A DNA stretch of 5,484 nt from a virus (lineage: Duplodnaviria > Heunggongvirae > Uroviricota > Caudoviricetes). Made by a program: the position numbers and the translations under genes. The notes below the pieces were generated by a model. That model was given only the letters and a program-made list of their open reading frames with translations, was not told the origin of the DNA and searched no databases. The stretch's first letter is position 1, and each line of letters opens with the position of its first letter. The stretch lies in IMG/VR virus record IMGVR_UViG_2657244940_000006. One strand, 5' to 3'. Of the stretch, positions 43 to 5,484 are shown piece after piece.

Positions 43-567
43 TCAGACCGTGCGCATGGTGCTGATTACCAGCAGCACGGACAATGTCACCTCTGTAGAG
101 CGGTTTCCGCTGGGTGAGTTATGCCTGTTGAAAAAATCAACGATAGCGTGGAGCGCGACTGAGCGCATTGCGTCCTTTTCAAAAAGGATCTCATGGTACG
201 CACCTTTAATTACCAACGGCCGTCCTCCTTCGACAGGATGGCCCGCAGCGGTGCGTAGTTCACAAAAACGGTCGTGCATGCGGTTATCAACAAACTGATG
301 GTTTTCATTGATAATGCGGGACCAGCCATCAACGCCAACCACCGGAACGATGCCGTTCTGCTTGTCAGGGAAGGCGTAAATTTCTTTCGTCCAGGGATTA
401 AGGCCGTACTGGTTGGCGACGATCAACAATGCGATAAATTGCGCATCGCTGGCATCACCTTTAAATGCCGTCTGGCGAAGAGTGGTGATTAGTTCCTGTG
501 GGTCGACAGAATCCATGCCGACACGTTCAGCCAGCTTCCCTGCCAGCGTTGCGAGTGCTGTACTCAT
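43..567 (-). CDS. bet: Bet (Red-beta) single-strand annealing protein, N-terminal ~90 aa only; C-terminal ~85 aa unrelated to lambda Bet (chimeric or truncated bet, possibly a pseudogene)
   Basis: Residues 1-89 (MSTALATLAGKLAERVGMDSVDPQELITTLRQTAFKGDASDAQFIALLIVANQYGLNPWTKEIYAFPDKQNGIVPVVGVDGWSRIINEN) match my recollection of lambda Bet almost exactly; QF at 91-92 also agrees, then similarity is lost (junction about nt 290-300). ORF is 174 aa versus 261 aa for lambda Bet. Start lies 5 nt downstream of the gam stop, as in lambda. AGAGG Shine-Dalgarno-like motif upstream of the ATG. Confidence 0.6.
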   Translation of the reverse strand: MSTALATLAGKLAERVGMDSVDPQELITTLRQTAFKGDASDAQFIALLIVANQYGLNPWTKEIYAFPDKQNGIVPVVGVDGWSRIINENHQFVDNRMHDRFCELRTAAGHPVEGGRPLVIKGAYHEILFEKDAMRSVALHAIVDFFNRHNSPSGNRSTEVTLSVLLVISTMRTV

Positions 568-869: not shown

Positions 870-2938
870 GATTTATCACCTCCGAAATTTTCAAGCCTGT
901 TGGCAATCATGATGGCGATATCAGGGATTGCTGGCGCTGTGGCTATACATGCGGGGTTGGCGCACAAACCATAGACGGCGGCAATCACGAGCTGTCTTTT
1001 CCAGTCGAGAGTTACTGGCTCAGAATTGGCGTCATCGCCGGACGTATCACTGCCTGGCTCGTTCTGAACAACGGTTTCGCCCTCCTGAGCGGCATCAACA
1101 GAGTTTTCCTGAATGATCTTCTCCTCAGTTTGTGCTGAGTCTTCTCCATCAGCGGCGTCATTTTCTCCAAAAGTTTCTGTGTAAGTGCTATCGCCCATTA
1201 CCGCACTACAGTCAGGGCAGTTACCCCCGCCAGTCTGACCACAGACGCGGCAGTTTTTTTCCAGCTCCGGTTGCGCTACTGGCCCTGGCTGTTGCTCTTC
1301 TGGCCCGTTTTGTTGCGTATCCGGGCTGTTTTGTCCCGCTTCTGGGGCAATTTGTTCCACTTTGGACTGATTCTGGTCCTCAGTGTCGCGAGTCTGGATC
1401 CCCTTCACCCACTTCGGATCAGCAGGGTTACTGATGCCTTCAACGAATTCTCCACGCGAGGCAGCCAGTAATTTGTCGGCATCGACTGGATTTTTTGGGG
1501 GGATGTTTTCCCTGGCTTTATTGAGTTCCTCCCTCAGTTCCTGGTATTTCGTTTCTACAGATGAGACATTTTCCAGTGATTGCGTGTCCTCATTATGTTT
1601 AACTGGAATTTCTTCCACTGATTCAGGCGCTGCCTGTTCATTAGCCATTGTGTCCGATGCTTGTTGCTTTTCTTCATCGCCATGTTTTCCTTCTGCTGTT
1701 CCGCGCTGCGGCATCGGTGCTGATGAGCGACCGCAGGCAATTTCCACGATTTCCGGATCCGGGTTAGCGTGATCGGTTTCGGTCAACACTTTGTTGAGAT
1801 ATTCAGTCACGCGTGCCGGGATGGCCTCAATGCCGATTGGTGCTTCTTTCACGGAAGCCACCACAATGGCGCGGGAATAATCCAGCCCACCGGGCATGGC
1901 GATAAATTTGTCGCGAAAAACAGAAAAGGGCGGCTTATTCTCTGACACGATTTCTTCAACGCGTTTTGCGTGTGCTGGGTGCAGGTTATAAATATCCACA
2001 TCCATTGAACGGGCCAGAACGCCGGTGGCTACATCTCGTGCGAGTGATGTCTTATCATGTTTGAATCCTTCACCACGATCGGTAATATTTCCGCCGCCAG
2101 CGTTAGCACCGGAAGGCGTACGGGTAATGCCTGAAACATAATTTCCGTTCTGCCATTCTTTTGTCAGCAGGCCCTGATCAAGGTAGTCAGTTTTCATCCA
2201 GGTGGAAATGAACTTGTCGAATTCAGCCGGGCTGATGCGATGATTTGCAGAGTGGGGGAATGCTTTCCCTACAGATTCAGCCAGGCGACTAAGGTGATAG
2301 TTCGTCAGTTTATCCAGTTCATGATGCGCGGCGCGCACAGCAGTAAGCAGGCTCTGAAGGTAACTGTCCTCTGTGTCCATCTCCATACGGATCACGTTAT
2401 TGCGTTGTTCTGGTGTGGCATGATGCCGGTATTTTCCATCTTCATCTTTGCTGAATAAGAAGAGGTGAAGGAAGCGATGAGTAAGGCTCAGAGTGGCGAC
2501 GGGAATTTCACACTCAGAACAGTCATCGTCGCTGTCCGGGGATTCGCTTTTCTCCACATCATCCGGAATAGTTCCGTCCAGGTTATCGTTGTCATCGCCA
2601 GCAGTTGTGGCATCTTCACCGTTGATGTTGTCATCGAAGGGGATAGCCATCATGGTGATGCCATCGTTACCGCCTTTTTCATAGCGGTTGCAGAATTCAG
2701 TATCAAACACGCCTTCCGGTGGAAGGTCATTCACAACGGGTAAATGGACGCGGATGGGTTTTTTAAAATCCTCTTCGTCAAATCCGGCATCGTCCATTGC
2801 AGCAACACCGCGTGATATTGCAACCGATAATTTTTTTGCTGTGCGCCAGTAAAAACCACCTTTAATCCCAAGGCGTTTTCTGACTTTGTCATTTTTGGCT
2901 TCGTAATATAGTGCAATTTCTTCTTTATCAGCGTTCAT
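866..2938 (-). CDS. Large (690 aa) highly acidic hypothetical protein with CxxC-x7-CxxC zinc-ribbon-like motif and hydrophobic C-terminal segment; occupies the kil / ydfE position between ydfD and gam
   Basis: Uninterrupted 2073-nt ORF; ATG at 2936..2938 preceded by GAGG about 7 nt upstream; stop overlaps gam start. Composition: D/E-rich low-complexity tracts (aa ~100-145 and ~415-645), a central less biased segment (aa ~145-400), Cys563-x2-Cys566-x7-Cys574-x2-Cys577 (nt 1208..1252), a further CxxC at aa 140-143, and a hydrophobic stretch aa ~648-680. No family recognised from memory. Confidence 0.8.
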
Positions 2939-3030
2939 TGATAAACCTCATAACCATTTTAAGGATGAACAAATTCCTGCCATTGCTGGCATTTTTAATC
3001 CGTTGGTATGGCGTTAATATGGCTGGCGGG

Positions 3031-3219
3031 TTATCCAGCCGGTGTTTCGTTATTCAGGTACAGCGATACTTTTTTTAACGGGAGGCATTCACCGGGGATT
3101 TTTTGTTCGTCCCTTACCTGAATGCAGGATGACTTACTGTCATAAATTCCGGTAATCACATTCTGCGGCTCACCCGTTATAAGAAAAACGGTCATTATCA
3201 GTGCAAACGCTGAAGTCAC
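3031..3219 (-). CDS. ydfD: YdfD-like small membrane (lysis-associated) protein, 62 aa
   Basis: Immediately downstream of dicB with a 4-nt overlap (GTGA; GTG start at 3217..3219, GGAG about 9 nt upstream). Hydrophobic N-terminus (MTSAFALIMTVFLITG) consistent with a single transmembrane helix. Size and position match the K-12 Qin dicB-ydfD arrangement. The alternative ATG at 3193..3195 lacks an RBS. Confidence 0.55.
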   Translation of the reverse strand: MTSAFALIMTVFLITGEPQNVITGIYDSKSSCIQVRDEQKIPGECLPLKKVSLYLNNETPAG

Positions 3220-3404
3220 TGCTGTTCTCCGATAATACCAAGTTCAAGAAGGGCAATTCTGGAAAGTATGGAATTATCATTGAGAAGATAAGGTTCATAT
3301 TTTCTCATCTTAATGGCATCTTCAGTAAACTCCCGGTTACTGAGCAGAACTCCAATATCAAAACAACCTTCAGACGTATTAACGTTTGGTAATAACGTTT
3401 CCAT
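3216..3404 (-). CDS. dicB: Cell division inhibitor DicB homolog, 62 aa
   Basis: Protein METLLPNVNTSEGCFDIGVLLSNREFTEDAIKMRKYEPYLLNDNSILSRIALLELGIIGEQQ; the N-terminal ~33 aa closely match my recollection of K-12 DicB (MKTLLPNVNTSEGCFEIGV...TEDAI), the C-terminal third diverges. RBS GAGGA 7 nt upstream of the ATG at 3402..3404. The supplied ORF 3216..3551 is an artefactual N-terminal extension running through the dicF-dicB spacer. Confidence 0.85.
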   Translation of the reverse strand: METLLPNVNTSEGCFDIGVLLSNREFTEDAIKMRKYEPYLLNDNSILSRIALLELGIIGEQQ

Positions 3405-3575
3405 TATCGCGTCCTCAACAATGAATTTTGTGATGCAGTGCCTGGTGCCTCCAGGTGACGTTAACCAGTTAACAACTAACGCCGGGTCAGGGGACGATGA
3501 CTTTCCGTGACATCCTGTCGGTTTAACTGTTCCGCGTGCGCATAGCCGCATTCACCGCATCACAAAATTCACTTT

Positions 3576-3616
3576 AAAAAGGGCGGACATCAGCAATCGG
3601 CAAACCGATGTCCGCC
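3576..3616 (-). terminator. Rho-independent terminator hairpin (10-bp perfect stem GGCGGACAUC / GAUGUCCGCC, 15-nt loop, then C + U5) at the DicF-like RNA 3' end
   Basis: Seen directly: plus-strand 3582..3591 ggcggacatc and 3607..3616 gatgtccgcc are reverse complements; the T-run on the minus strand corresponds to plus-strand a-run 3576..3580. On the plus strand the hairpin is not followed by a T-run, so termination is orientation-specific. Confidence 0.65.
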
Positions 3617-3632
3617 AAGGGCTACACACAGC
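3576..3632 (-). ncRNA. dicF: DicF-like small RNA (divergent variant); 3' end defined by an intrinsic terminator; 5' end approximate
   Basis: Minus-strand sequence ...GUGUGUAGCCCUUGGCGGACAUCGGUUUGCCGAUUGCUGAUGUCCGCCCUUUUU, followed by AAAGTGAATTTTGTGATG...GGTGAATGCGGCT...GCGCACGCGGAACAG, which matches the dicF-dicB spacer of K-12 as I recall it. The RNA body keeps the UUGGCGG...CCGCCCUUUUU framework of DicF but differs internally. Lies about 170 nt upstream of dicB, as in Qin. Confidence 0.5.
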
Positions 3633-3699
3633 AATGTTGTTATTCACAACCGGAAGCGCACGGTCGAAGAAATCTAACGACAAGCCTTCAATGGGAAAG

Positions 3700-3855
3700 A
3701 GTCTTCGCCGTGCACTTTCGTGTTGTACCCTGGCTTTCAGGGTAATGTCTGTTCAGTAAACTGAGAGTGCCGGAACTTACCCGTGTCCGGCGCACGATCT
3801 CCACCTCACCCGTGGAGAACTCCTCAACTACAAACCCCGTAAGGAGAGTGAGTTT
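3700..3855 (+). promoter_or_regulatory. Putative promoter and structured 5' leader of the plus-strand small gene (two hairpins 3767..3793 and 3798..3818 upstream of the RBS)
   Basis: Seen in sequence: inverted repeats gtgccgga/tccggcgc (8-bp stem with one G-U, 11-nt loop) and tctccac/gtggaga (7-bp stem, 7-nt loop) followed by AAGGAGAG. Only weak sigma70-like hexamers (TTGTAC ... TAATGT with 14-nt spacing, about 3723..3748). Promoter assignment is speculative. Confidence 0.25.
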
Positions 3856-4065
3856 ATGACACAAGAAGAAAAAGTGATGTTTCTGATGCGGCTGGCTGTC
3901 GATACCTACAACACACAATTCAGGGAGAAAGATATACCTCAAAAGGCAGTTCCTGCCGCGGTAGATAAGGGCGGTGCTATTGCCGTATTTTACGATGCAT
4001 TTGAATCATTTTTTAATGAAAAACTCGACGCTGTTAGCGGCTTCGGAACATCGAGTAATAAATAA
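3856..4065 (+). CDS. Small hypothetical protein (69 aa), opposite orientation to the surrounding operon
   Basis: ATG at 3856 preceded by a strong Shine-Dalgarno AAGGAGAG (3841..3848) with 7-nt spacing; TAA stop at 4063..4065. Protein MTQEEKVMFLMRLAVDTYNTQFREKDIPQKAVPAAVDKGGAIAVFYDAFESFFNEKLDAVSGFGTSSNK has no recognised family. Its 3' end overlaps by 32 nt the 3' end of the convergent minus-strand ORF 4034..4393. Confidence 0.6.
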   Translation: MTQEEKVMFLMRLAVDTYNTQFREKDIPQKAVPAAVDKGGAIAVFYDAFESFFNEKLDAVSGFGTSSNK

Positions 4066-4393
4066 CGTTCATTACGGTTCTTAAACAACAATCAGTGGGC
4101 TTGATGTTGTTCTTTTCAAGCTCACTTGCCATCACTTCCATTATTCTTGCACTTACACGAATTATTTGGTGGCTGTAAGCGATGCAACTGTCGCTGATAT
4201 TGCTGTTTATTTCTATTACTTCATTTTCACCATTAGCATCAACTTCGGATGCGCTGTTTTCATTATCCTGTTTCAGTGCTTTTTCTGCCATCTGGATGCG
4301 TGTCAGCGTTGCGGAATTTGGGCTAAGTCGATAAACCTGTCTGGCATCTTCCAGAAGCAGGGCGATAATGTGCTTCAGTTCTGTTTCGTTCAT
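4034..4393 (-). CDS. Hypothetical early protein (~119 aa from ATG at 4391..4393)
   Basis: The supplied ORF 4034..4414 begins with a TTG; the first ATG (4391..4393) has GGAG about 8 nt upstream. Acidic central tract (DNENSASEVDANGENEVIEINSN). The C-terminal end overlaps the plus-strand gene, so the true 3' end is uncertain. Confidence 0.5.
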   Translation of the reverse strand: MNETELKHIIALLLEDARQVYRLSPNSATLTRIQMAEKALKQDNENSASEVDANGENEVIEINSNISDSCIAYSHQIIRVSARIMEVMASELEKNNIKPTDCCLRTVMNVIYYSMFRSR

Positions 4394-4424: not shown

Positions 4425-4730
4425 TCAGGCGGTCAGCTCTTTAAGCTTCTGAACTGCTTTATTCATTTCATCCATACAGTCGATGAATTCGTCCAGTTTA
4501 AGCTGCATTTTTCCGGCGGCCTGAAGAATTTCAAGTTTTAAGGGCGCAAGTTTTTTGTTGAATGCATCATCTTCCTGGCGTTTTTTCTCCGCAATTTCGG
4601 CGGCTTTCAGCAATTCTTCAGCCTGTTTTCTGAGTATTTCTGGTGAAGGTGAAACTGCTTTGAGGTTATTCATTTCAGGTTCCTGTTGTTGCAGAATTAA
4701 TTTGTTGCATTCTCTGCGTGAGCGTTTCAT
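4425..4730 (-). CDS. Hypothetical coiled-coil-like protein (101 aa)
   Basis: ATG at 4728..4730 overlaps the stop of the upstream gene (ATGA at 4727..4730), suggesting translational coupling. Sequence rich in K/E/A/L/Q heptad-like segments (EILRKQAEELLKAAEIAEKKRQ...). Alternative internal ATG at 4671..4673 with AGGA upstream. Confidence 0.6.
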   Translation of the reverse strand: MKRSRRECNKLILQQQEPEMNNLKAVSPSPEILRKQAEELLKAAEIAEKKRQEDDAFNKKLAPLKLEILQAAGKMQLKLDEFIDCMDEMNKAVQKLKELTA

Positions 4731-5137
4731 TGCAGATTCGCACTTCTTGCAATAAATGGCTCTCCCGTCACGCTTGCTGGCATCTGAATAAAAATCATTG
4801 ACTGATTTTGTCTGCCCGCATCTGGTACATAATTTTGATTGAAGGTCCTTAATGATTGTGACGTTTCCTTCCCGCTTGGGATATCCATATTTTTGTGGCG
4901 TAAAAAGGTTACTCCGTTACCAGAACCTTCTTTTCTGACCTTAAATACAATGATGCTTTCCCGTTTATCGATAAAATCGATGAGCTGGTTTCTCTCCTTT
5001 CCTGACAGTTCGGCAAATGTCTTAACTTTTTTAGTAACCTCAGTAAGGCGAACGCCGTCAGGCATTTTTTCAACGAAGTTTTTAATCTCTGCAAGCGGAC
5101 GCCATAATTTTTGCGGCAAAACTGAAGGCGTGGTCAT
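4727..5137 (-). CDS. Hypothetical early protein (136 aa from ATG at 5135..5137)
   Basis: The supplied ORF starts at TTG 5138..5140; the adjacent ATG at 5135..5137 has a strong RBS GAGGTGA about 5 nt upstream and lies 3 nt after the upstream gene stop (5141..5143). No family recognised. Confidence 0.6.
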   Translation of the reverse strand: MTTPSVLPQKLWRPLAEIKNFVEKMPDGVRLTEVTKKVKTFAELSGKERNQLIDFIDKRESIIVFKVRKEGSGNGVTFLRHKNMDIPSGKETSQSLRTFNQNYVPDAGRQNQSMIFIQMPASVTGEPFIARSANLQ

Positions 5138-5140
5138 CAA

Positions 5141-5484
5141 TCACCTCGCCGTCAGTTGTTTTGATTTCCGGTAGCCTGCCGCGTAAATGGCTACGTTTGG
5201 AAGACATACACCAGTTTCTGGTTGCTTATGTCCAAACTCATTCGCGTACACAATGGCTGCTCGCTCCAGATTGCGTCTGTATTCTTTCTGTTGCCAGATC
5301 ACGTCCTGTGCCATGAACTTAATTGGCTTAGCGTCTTCTATGCGCTCAGGCGTTTCGTGAGTACCTTTAGCCTGAATCTGCGCTCTGCTTAGAGTAGGGC
5401 GGTGTAATACTTCTGAACTTATTGCTTCTTCGCGGGCCAGCACGCCGTTAGCTAATGCCTTTGCCTTTAAACGCACACGACGAT
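5141..5484 (-). CDS. Hypothetical protein, 5'-truncated by the window edge (C-terminal >=111 aa)
   Basis: Reading frame is open to the window end at 5484; the supplied start at 5474..5476 is a GTG and probably internal. Stop at 5141..5143 is immediately followed by the RBS of the next gene. Confidence 0.5.
   Translation of the reverse strand, partial: RRVRLKAKALANGVLAREEAISSEVLHRPTLSRAQIQAKGTHETPERIEDAKPIKFMAQDVIWQQKEYRRNLERAAIVYANEFGHKQPETGVCLPNVAIYAAGYRKSKQLTAR

Follow-up and report, generated by a model that had tools for sequence, protein, structure and literature searches.

The 5,484-nt stretch of phage DNA analysed here (the window) encodes on its minus strand the 3' 113 codons of a 933W-type N antiterminator gene (5144..5482, cut by the window end; tblastn to residues 15-127 of PhiR5_2 N, 99% identity). 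This gene and three small ORFs lie upstream of a candidate small RNA element, and dicB lies downstream of it. The dicB gene (3216..3404, minus strand) encodes a 62-aa cell-division inhibitor, as judged from the ORF, its translation and matching loci annotated dicB. It begins 171 nt downstream of the element and is reached by read-through of the element's hairpin. Next are a ydfD-like DUF1482 gene (3031..3219, minus strand; also recognised by its ORF and matching loci) and then a RecE-family exonuclease gene, gam and bet. Because the N gene lies upstream and dicB, the exonuclease gene, gam and bet lie downstream, we place the element inside the N-dependent early-left operon of a lambdoid prophage. 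The slot that it occupies belongs to the early-left operon of lambdoid phages and prophages, and the best-known occupant is DicF of the Qin prophage (Rfam RF00039), a repressor of ftsZ, xylR and pykA.

The surrounding genes have a mosaic history of their own. In window 2950-3419, the dicB and DUF1482 module replaces a module of kil and a hypothetical gene that is found in the closest relatives, locus L001 and phage PhiR5_2, with flanks on both sides that are 97.5-99% identical. The bet ORF (43-567, minus strand) encodes 174 aa compared with 261 for PhiR5_2 Bet, and its alignment with that protein (82% identity) breaks off at residue 117. At the nucleotide level the closest relatives cease to match near position 290, inside bet, which suggests that this gene contains a second mosaic junction or has been truncated. 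The 137-aa and 101-aa ORFs (4727-5140 and 4425-4730) together correspond, in two frames, to a single 237-aa gene that PhiR5_2 has intact (tblastn, frames -3/-2), and the frameshift is placed at 4877-4895 (minus strand). Because this gene is frameshifted, the prophage is probably decaying, unless the frameshift is a sequencing error.

The element is predicted to encode a 60-nt RNA (3576..3635, minus strand) that consists of a 19-nt free arm (AUUGCUGUGUGUAGCCCUU), a perfect 13-bp terminator hairpin and CCCUUUUU. The prediction draws on a family model (R1, described below) and on sub-threshold Rfam matches. The minus strand of the region reads ...CCGGUUGUGAAUAACAACAUUGCUGUGUGUAGCCCUUGGCGGACAUCGGUUUGCCGAUUGCUGAUGUCCGCCCUUUUUAAAGUG..., and the RNA quoted in the initial annotation, GUAGCCCUUGGCGGACAUCGGUUUGCCGAUUGCUGAUGUCCGCCC followed by UUUUU, is present on this strand at about 3624-3576. 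The hairpin (3582..3616; GGCGGACAUCGGU-UUGCCGAUU-GCUGAUGUCCGCC) has 13 perfect pairs and a 9-nt loop. RNAfold applied to a 71-nt stretch returns this stem and loop at -25.7 kcal/mol, an energy matched by 1 of 200 shuffles (z = -3.35); the hairpin by itself gives -23.1 kcal/mol. A simple terminator scan of the window did not call the hairpin, solely because the loop limit of that scan is 8 nt. The stem is very stable, and only the arm and the 9-nt loop are accessible. One C and a tract of five U follow (3576..3581, minus strand), identical in K-12 DicF and KilS, and would form the termination point and likely a site for the proximal face of Hfq. A tract of only five U is a point against reading the element as an sRNA.

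On its 5' side, the arm is preceded by an extension (3636..3668, minus strand) that would belong to a possible long form of ~93 nt with a presumed 5' end. The extension includes AAUAACAAC (A-R-N repeats) and the AC|AUU junction with the arm. This junction resembles the RNase E site of RprA (GA|AUU in RprA) and, by that resemblance, hints at RNase E processing. Further upstream, a leader (3669..3850, minus strand) aligns with the Qin ydfC-dicF intergenic region and is presumably part of the precursor transcript. The spacer and dicB 5'UTR (3405..3575, minus strand) lie on the other side. Thus, the dicB-proximal 60-nt element is flanked by a leader and a spacer that are each conserved with K-12 Qin. 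The spacer is also weakly STnc100-like: the Rfam STnc100 model matches window 3372-3583 (minus strand) at 27.2 bits against a gathering score of 47, and spacers of the K-12 Qin type and of Rac give 38.7 and 28.0 bits. Because all three spacers give sub-threshold matches of this kind, the whole slot may be homologous to the Salmonella prophage sRNA locus STnc100.

The initial annotation had proposed a divergent DicF-like sRNA upstream of dicB, and a hairpin with a DicF-type terminator base and tail does lie in this position. The window and Qin have in common the location upstream of dicB, the UUGGCGG...CCGCCCUUUUU terminator frame, the spacer and a homologous leader, and the element sits between a ydfC-type leader and dicB as DicF does. 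The close match claimed for the spacer holds, with 153 of 182 columns identical to the K-12 dicF-dicB spacer; both ends are near-identical, and the divergence falls in ~40 nt between them. The terminator's 3' side (CCGCCCUUUUUAAAGUGAAUUUUGUGA), described as ending like DicF, is identical to K-12 at 27/27 positions. At the base of the stem, GGCGG/CCGCC is common to DicF and KilS, and the top of the hairpin is subtype-specific. The body is unlike K-12 DicF, as had been noted (45/65 columns identical, several gaps). Against Qin only the flanks align, these being a leader block ending CCGGUUGUG (28 nt, 27/28) and the 3' side of the terminator with the spacer. Qin also has ~130 extra nt, forming the 190-nt DicF precursor, that are absent from the window. 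A MAFFT alignment hinted at a KilS-like remnant within this precursor, an idea that was dropped when blastn-short returned no significant similarity past the flanks.

K-12 DicF uses its 5' end for xylR and pykA and sequences near its 3' end for ftsZ (PMC5069750). In the window, both the 5' arm of K-12 DicF (UUUCUGGUGACGU, xylR/pykA pairing) and its loop and 3' half (ftsZ pairing) are replaced. The xylR/pykA-pairing arm UUUCUGGUGACG (PMC5069750) was not found in the window element, whose arm reads AUUGCUGUGUGUAGCCC. Because the body differs exactly in the segments with which K-12 DicF pairs, the altered target set anticipated in the initial annotation appears to be the right expectation. The pairing of the variant's loop and 3' half with the ftsZ ribosome-binding site was compared with a background of 8,328 windows from 50 kb of K-12 DNA. 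Control of ftsZ, assumed by analogy with DicF, fared badly in this comparison. By duplex energy the window variant ranks 1354/8329 (z = -0.99), which is background, compared with 23/8329 for K-12 DicF and 15/8329 for the L036 variant in the same scan. Cofold binding energy also does not single out ftsZ for the window variant (rank 436/2855, versus 64/2855 for K-12 DicF). With both ranks near background, ftsZ was rejected as a target of this variant.

The Rfam DicF covariance model matches the element at 3581-3630 (minus strand) with 29.5 bits (E = 0.0018 on the whole window), below the gathering score of 48, so that the check proposed in the initial annotation is not passed cleanly. Copies of the K-12 type score 76.7 bits, and every other collected variant scores 28-44 bits. 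The initial identification as DicF therefore survives for the slot, the terminator base and tail and the spacer, but the element is not a drifted DicF copy and is colinear with KilS instead. The scores and pairing ranks indicate that it falls outside the curated DicF family and lend no support to ftsZ targeting. Naming it DicF with assumed control of ftsZ is probably wrong.

By sequence comparison, the closest characterised relative of the element is KilS (b4833), annotated in the K-12 Rac prophage in the corresponding position, upstream of kilR. KilS was predicted from Hfq RIL-seq data and verified by Northern blot, with yncL as a partner and possibly its own transcription start (Bar et al. 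2021, PMC8175672). The 98-nt KilS and the window element align colinearly, matching at 37/40 positions over GUGCGCUUCCGGUUGUGAAUAACAACAUUGCUGUGUGUAG in the 5' part and at 35/35 from GCUGAUGUCCGCCC (the 3' stem half) into the spacer. The possible ~93-nt long form would be equivalent to the whole of KilS. The 60-nt RNA would be the counterpart of the 3' 66 nt of KilS, with which it shares 54 of 68 alignment columns, and it has the same architecture as processed RprA. Both loci are laid out as a leader ending CCGGUUGU, AAUAAC(G/A)ACAUUGCUGUGUGUAG, a GGCGG...CUGAUGUCCGCCCUUUUU terminator and a downstream spacer. They differ in the 5' stem half and loop (ACAUCGGUUUGCCGAUU in the window, CAUCAGUUUUUUUCUUGAAGUUCG in KilS), and the stem is a perfect 13 bp in the window but bulged in KilS. 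The downstream gene differs as well, dicB in the window and kilR for K-12 KilS, and the window element does not lie in a kilR 5'UTR. An element identical to it precedes kil in L001, in phage PhiR5_2 and in ~99 E. coli genomes. No promoter was found by a sigma-70 consensus scan upstream of KilS or of the window element. KilS and DicF were already known, and what appears to be new here is a KilS hairpin variant in a new junction with dicB.

The arm of the element begins with a seed, AUUGCUGUGUGUAG (3622..3635, minus strand), that is identical at 14/14 positions to nt 60-73 of E. coli RprA, the 5' end of processed RprA. RprA (Rfam RF00034) is a host envelope-stress sRNA that belongs to the core genome and is under Rcs control. 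Processed RprA comprises RprA60-105, nt 60 being a natural 5' end (PMC3465796), and has also been described as the last 47 nt (RprAproc; PMC9262595). Overproduced RprA60-105 is enough for repression of csgD, and compensatory mutants pair csgD CAGC(-90..-87) with an RprA GCUG that lies inside the nt-60-73 block (PMC3465796). ydaM/dgcM responds to the same RprA mutation as well, with a separate compensatory change (PMC3465796). Similarity to RprA is looser 5' of the seed (GUGAA..ACAAC). The Rfam RprA model gives 29.7 bits on the element (3572-3683, minus strand; E = 0.066 on 201 nt) and 28.1 bits on the KilS region, both below its gathering score of 70. The alignment covers the conserved centre of RprA, and the DicF and RprA models score the element equally (29.5 vs 29.7 bits).

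Like processed RprA, the element has a seed arm followed by a terminator, the same junction before AUUG and the same predicted duplex with csgD site Ib. Unlike RprA, it lacks the 5' stem-loops, has a different terminator hairpin and lies in a prophage rather than at the rprA locus. The rpoS-pairing block of RprA, AACGAAUU, is altered to AACAACAUU in the window, with no CCCCUG upstream. The element is thus outside the RprA family, membership of which takes at least 70 bits and three stem-loops. A shorter class of IMG/VR loci (L008, L020, L060, L065, L080, L108, L110 and L119) has GGAAUUGCUGUG joined directly to UUGGCGG. In this class GAAUUGCUGUG equals RprA nt 58-68, the hairpin top is unrelated and the downstream DNA is different; because of the equality, we regard the class as carrying a second, truncated RprA-like arm.

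The K-12 csgD leader contains the site CUACACACAGCAGUG, with which the window arm (CAUUGCUGUGUGUAG) pairs in silico over 15 contiguous positions (site Ib), and GCCCUU after the arm can pair with UAGGGC of csgD site Ia. The duplex of the arm with csgD site I reaches -27.7 kcal/mol, and none of 26,648 background windows is as good (background minimum -25.0). The KilS and RprA arms behave like the window arm on csgD, and the K-12 DicF arm gives only -9.9 kcal/mol. Pairing of the window arm with dgcM/ydaM is not above background (-12.3 kcal/mol; 6,178 of 26,648 windows as good), and pairing with yncL is modest, as 291 of the 26,648 windows are as good. We rejected yncL as a distinctive target of the arm, the 12-bp duplex (3 G-U) with the yncL 3' region lying only in the top 0.3-1% of background. 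The G/U-rich arm is promiscuous in such pairing-energy scans. RIL-seq and TRIC-seq have reported yncL as a partner of RprA too, and a partner common to KilS and RprA fits either a shared seed or mis-assignment of reads between both. RprA and KilS share 22 nt, and RIL-seq reads could be mis-assigned between them. From these complementarities, the window RNA would probably act on RprA targets such as the biofilm regulator csgD, not on ftsZ.

A scan of IMG/VR for the frame common to the window and K-12 (TTGGCGG, 15-40 nt, CCGCCCTTTTT) yielded 120 loci with ~48 distinct relatives. Their 5' arms fall into few classes, among them the K-12 class (UUUCUGGUGACGU, as in DicF) and the commonest other class, (A/C)UUGCUGUGUGUAG(U/C)C, which includes the window. 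Arms and hairpin tops are found in varied combinations. Among unrelated arm contexts, similarity starts at AUUG, the same point as the start of processed RprA. The covariance model R1 was trained on 20 IMG/VR variants, among which neither the window nor its near-twin L005 was included. It finds the window element as the sole match in the window, at 48.8 bits (E = 8e-11, about 1e-10), a score that is inflated because the pattern by which the training variants were collected (TTGGCGG...CCGCCCTTTTT) also occurs in the window; the arm is independent of this pattern. KilS scores 62.9 bits and K-12 DicF 54.4 bits. The window has the family's order of parts, an arm with UUGGCGG, a variable hairpin and then CCGCCCUUUUU. 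All variants fold as stable hairpins with varying mid-stem pairs (UAC/GUA, UGA/UCA, UGG/CCA, CAU/AUG, ACAU/AUGU and GUAU/AUAC). On the model-fitted alignment the pair count is weak (72% of cells paired, with the slide -1 control equally high) because bulges put half of the variants in a shifted register, and structural support was taken from the per-variant folds. A contig scan with GCTGTGTG N4-9 TTGGCGG was too loose and gave only chance matches from unrelated phyla.

Among the sampled loci, arms of the K-12 type occur with dicB in 49 and with kilR in 2. RprA-type arms occur with kilR in 11, or with neither gene, and the window has the only RprA-type arm with dicB. The nearest dicB locus, from E. 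coli UTAK-6 (L249, 1614-1670, plus strand), has flanks identical to those of the window, a window-like hairpin and a third arm type, CCUCGUGGUGUACCCA. The arm is cleanly replaced there between CCGGUUGUG and UUGGCGG. A prophage contig in IMG/VR (L036, 5583-5643, minus strand) has an RprA-type arm and a loop, GUUUCUCUCC, that is perfectly complementary over 10 nt to the E. coli ftsZ Shine-Dalgarno region GGAGAGAAAC; this is the variant that ranks above K-12 DicF in the duplex scan. One RNA of this type may, judging by its complementarity, combine an RprA seed with an anti-ftsZ loop. In a further prophage contig (L061, 4732-5215, minus strand), a DicF-like RNA (38.8 bits) is followed by an STnc100-like spacer, by isrK (59.6 bits, above gathering) and by a C4 antisense RNA (76.7 bits), and the dicF slot can thus belong to a dense cluster of regulatory RNAs. 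As far as these comparisons reach, the slot is modular across prophages, with arms, hairpin tops and the downstream division inhibitor (dicB or kilR) recombining.

AgvB and AsxR of E. coli O157 offer a parallel: each of these ~51-60 nt RNAs joins a 3' terminator part that is conserved to a 5' recognition part that varies, and has a fixed lambdoid-prophage position (Tree et al. 2014, PMC4104026). The window element, too, has the form of a short prophage sRNA divided in this way. However, AgvB and AsxR lie downstream of PR' in convergent pairs and have other sequences, and they are antisense to host sRNAs, whereas the window arm agrees in sense with a host sRNA seed. The AgvB/AsxR and Pas sRNAs were ruled out as the identity of the element, as they occupy other prophage positions.

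Of 5426 complete E. coli genomes, 99 contain the 161 nt around the element at 99-100% identity, the O104:H4 outbreak lineage among them, and 72 contain the 65-nt body. An identical element lies in the N operon of the plaque-forming phage PhiR5_2. In those E. coli genomes and in PhiR5_2, kil follows the element, not dicB. Among the same 5426 genomes, none was found with the window's combination over 80% of positions 2900-4100. KilS-type copies are common (1749/5426 genomes with at least 80% of an 89-nt KilS-type query). RefSeq/PGAP records have no feature at canonical DicF, KilS-type or window-type copies, except for the curated K-12 record. Because even canonical DicF copies are omitted, the missing annotation says nothing about these RNAs.

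The reading that we favour, and hold to be reasonably probable, is that the element is a KilS-type member of a modular prophage sRNA family in the slot upstream of dicB or kilR, and is predicted to act as an Hfq-dependent RNA with the RprA seed. This reading joins computed properties (sequence, fold, homology, family membership, mosaic context and complementarity) to expression, processing sites, Hfq binding and regulation that are taken by analogy from DicF, KilS and RprA. The RNA would arise as part of the N-led operon transcript, or else from a nearby start like that proposed for KilS. With antitermination off, the transcript would end at its own 13-bp hairpin and U5. Trimming at AC|AUUG would leave the 60-nt form (3635-3576), and the ~93-nt form may start near 3668. 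When N is active, read-through into dicB would follow, and the hairpin would thereby also gate the toxin gene. The single-stranded arm AUUGCUGUGUGUAG would base-pair with targets in an Hfq-dependent manner. Because it equals the seed of processed RprA, targets of the RprA seed should be bound. yncL and the csgD 5'UTR are the predicted targets; in csgD the arm would take site Ib with its 15 contiguous pairs, and GCCCUU might reach part of site Ia. The two segments with which K-12 DicF pairs are lost, and ftsZ is not a predicted target.

Alternatively, the hairpin may do no more than terminate or attenuate early-left transcription in cis, as an intrinsic terminator that gates dicB until N antiterminates, with no role in trans. 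The N gene upstream in the same operon, the strong hairpin and U tract and the toxic gene directly downstream all fit such a role. Nevertheless, a terminator by itself leaves unexplained the retention of a single-stranded arm of 14-16 nt between flanks that are unrelated, and the identity of this arm to the RprA seed. The K-12 homologue KilS also accumulates and is found in Hfq chimeras (PMC8175672). Because KilS is an Hfq-bound, Northern-verified sRNA (PMC8175672), we regard an operon-internal terminator and nothing else as unlikely. A cis role is compatible with a role in trans and is probably also true.

The initial reading, a true but diverged DicF that still acts as an anti-ftsZ antisense RNA in a shifted register, seems quite unlikely. 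The slot, the terminator base and tail and the spacer are all the same as in K-12, and the Rfam DicF E value of 0.0018 is in its favour. Inspection by eye also shows possible pairing of ftsZ AAUCGG and AAAC, around the Shine-Dalgarno sequence, with the loop CCGAUU and with GUUU, and of GGCG-ACA with UGU-CCGCC. In addition, ftsZ targeting recurs in the slot family, as in the anti-ftsZ loop of L036. However, the Rfam score is below gathering, the duplex and cofold ranks given above (1354/8329, compared with 23/8329 for K-12 DicF, and 436/2855) do not favour ftsZ, the perfect 13-bp stem would need to be opened and a 6-nt match is expected by chance at the ~10% level. We consider it improbable that the RNA is a competitor or decoy, occupying Hfq or RprA target sites without regulation or titrating a factor, and so modulating host RprA/Rcs output instead of mimicking RprA. 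The RprA seed stands here on a different scaffold, E. coli O157 has prophage anti-sRNAs whose 3' parts are conserved and whose 5' parts vary (PMC4104026), and processed RprA has an unexplained indirect effect on narP (PMC9262595). Yet RprA itself cannot be sponged by the window RNA because the two have the same sense, and RprA60-105, which has the same architecture, represses csgD (PMC3465796).

For the window locus by itself, the reading as a KilS-type RNA with an RprA seed amounts to the correction of an annotation-level guess. At the level of the family, DicF has been treated as a single well-defined prophage sRNA, and annotation follows an Rfam model that recognises the K-12 type only. In the searchable literature, of which our coverage is incomplete, we found nothing that links KilS-type RNAs and DicF as one modular family or equates the arm with the RprA seed. 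The 22 nt shared by RprA and KilS suggest that published interactome reads of both may be partly confounded. The family-level reading can be tested with simple reporters and is relevant to sRNA and phage biologists.

Because recognition arms and hairpin tops are exchanged like cassettes, strains would differ in the host mRNAs that their prophages can reach. KilS-type copies, whose seed is a copy of the RprA seed, occur in roughly a third of complete E. coli genomes. We tentatively propose, as a possibility to which we give less than even weight, that the division-inhibitor slot is a seed-swapping sRNA cassette. Lambdoid phages would use it to produce, within the early operon, a mimic of processed RprA that shuts off csgD and curli, together with other RprA-seed targets, independently of Rcs and alongside the block on division. 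Through the validated seed of a core stress sRNA, early transcription of prophages would then be tied to the biofilm switch csgD in a concrete way that can be tested. If this is true, the window shows that recombination can place the RprA mimic before dicB and not only before kilR.
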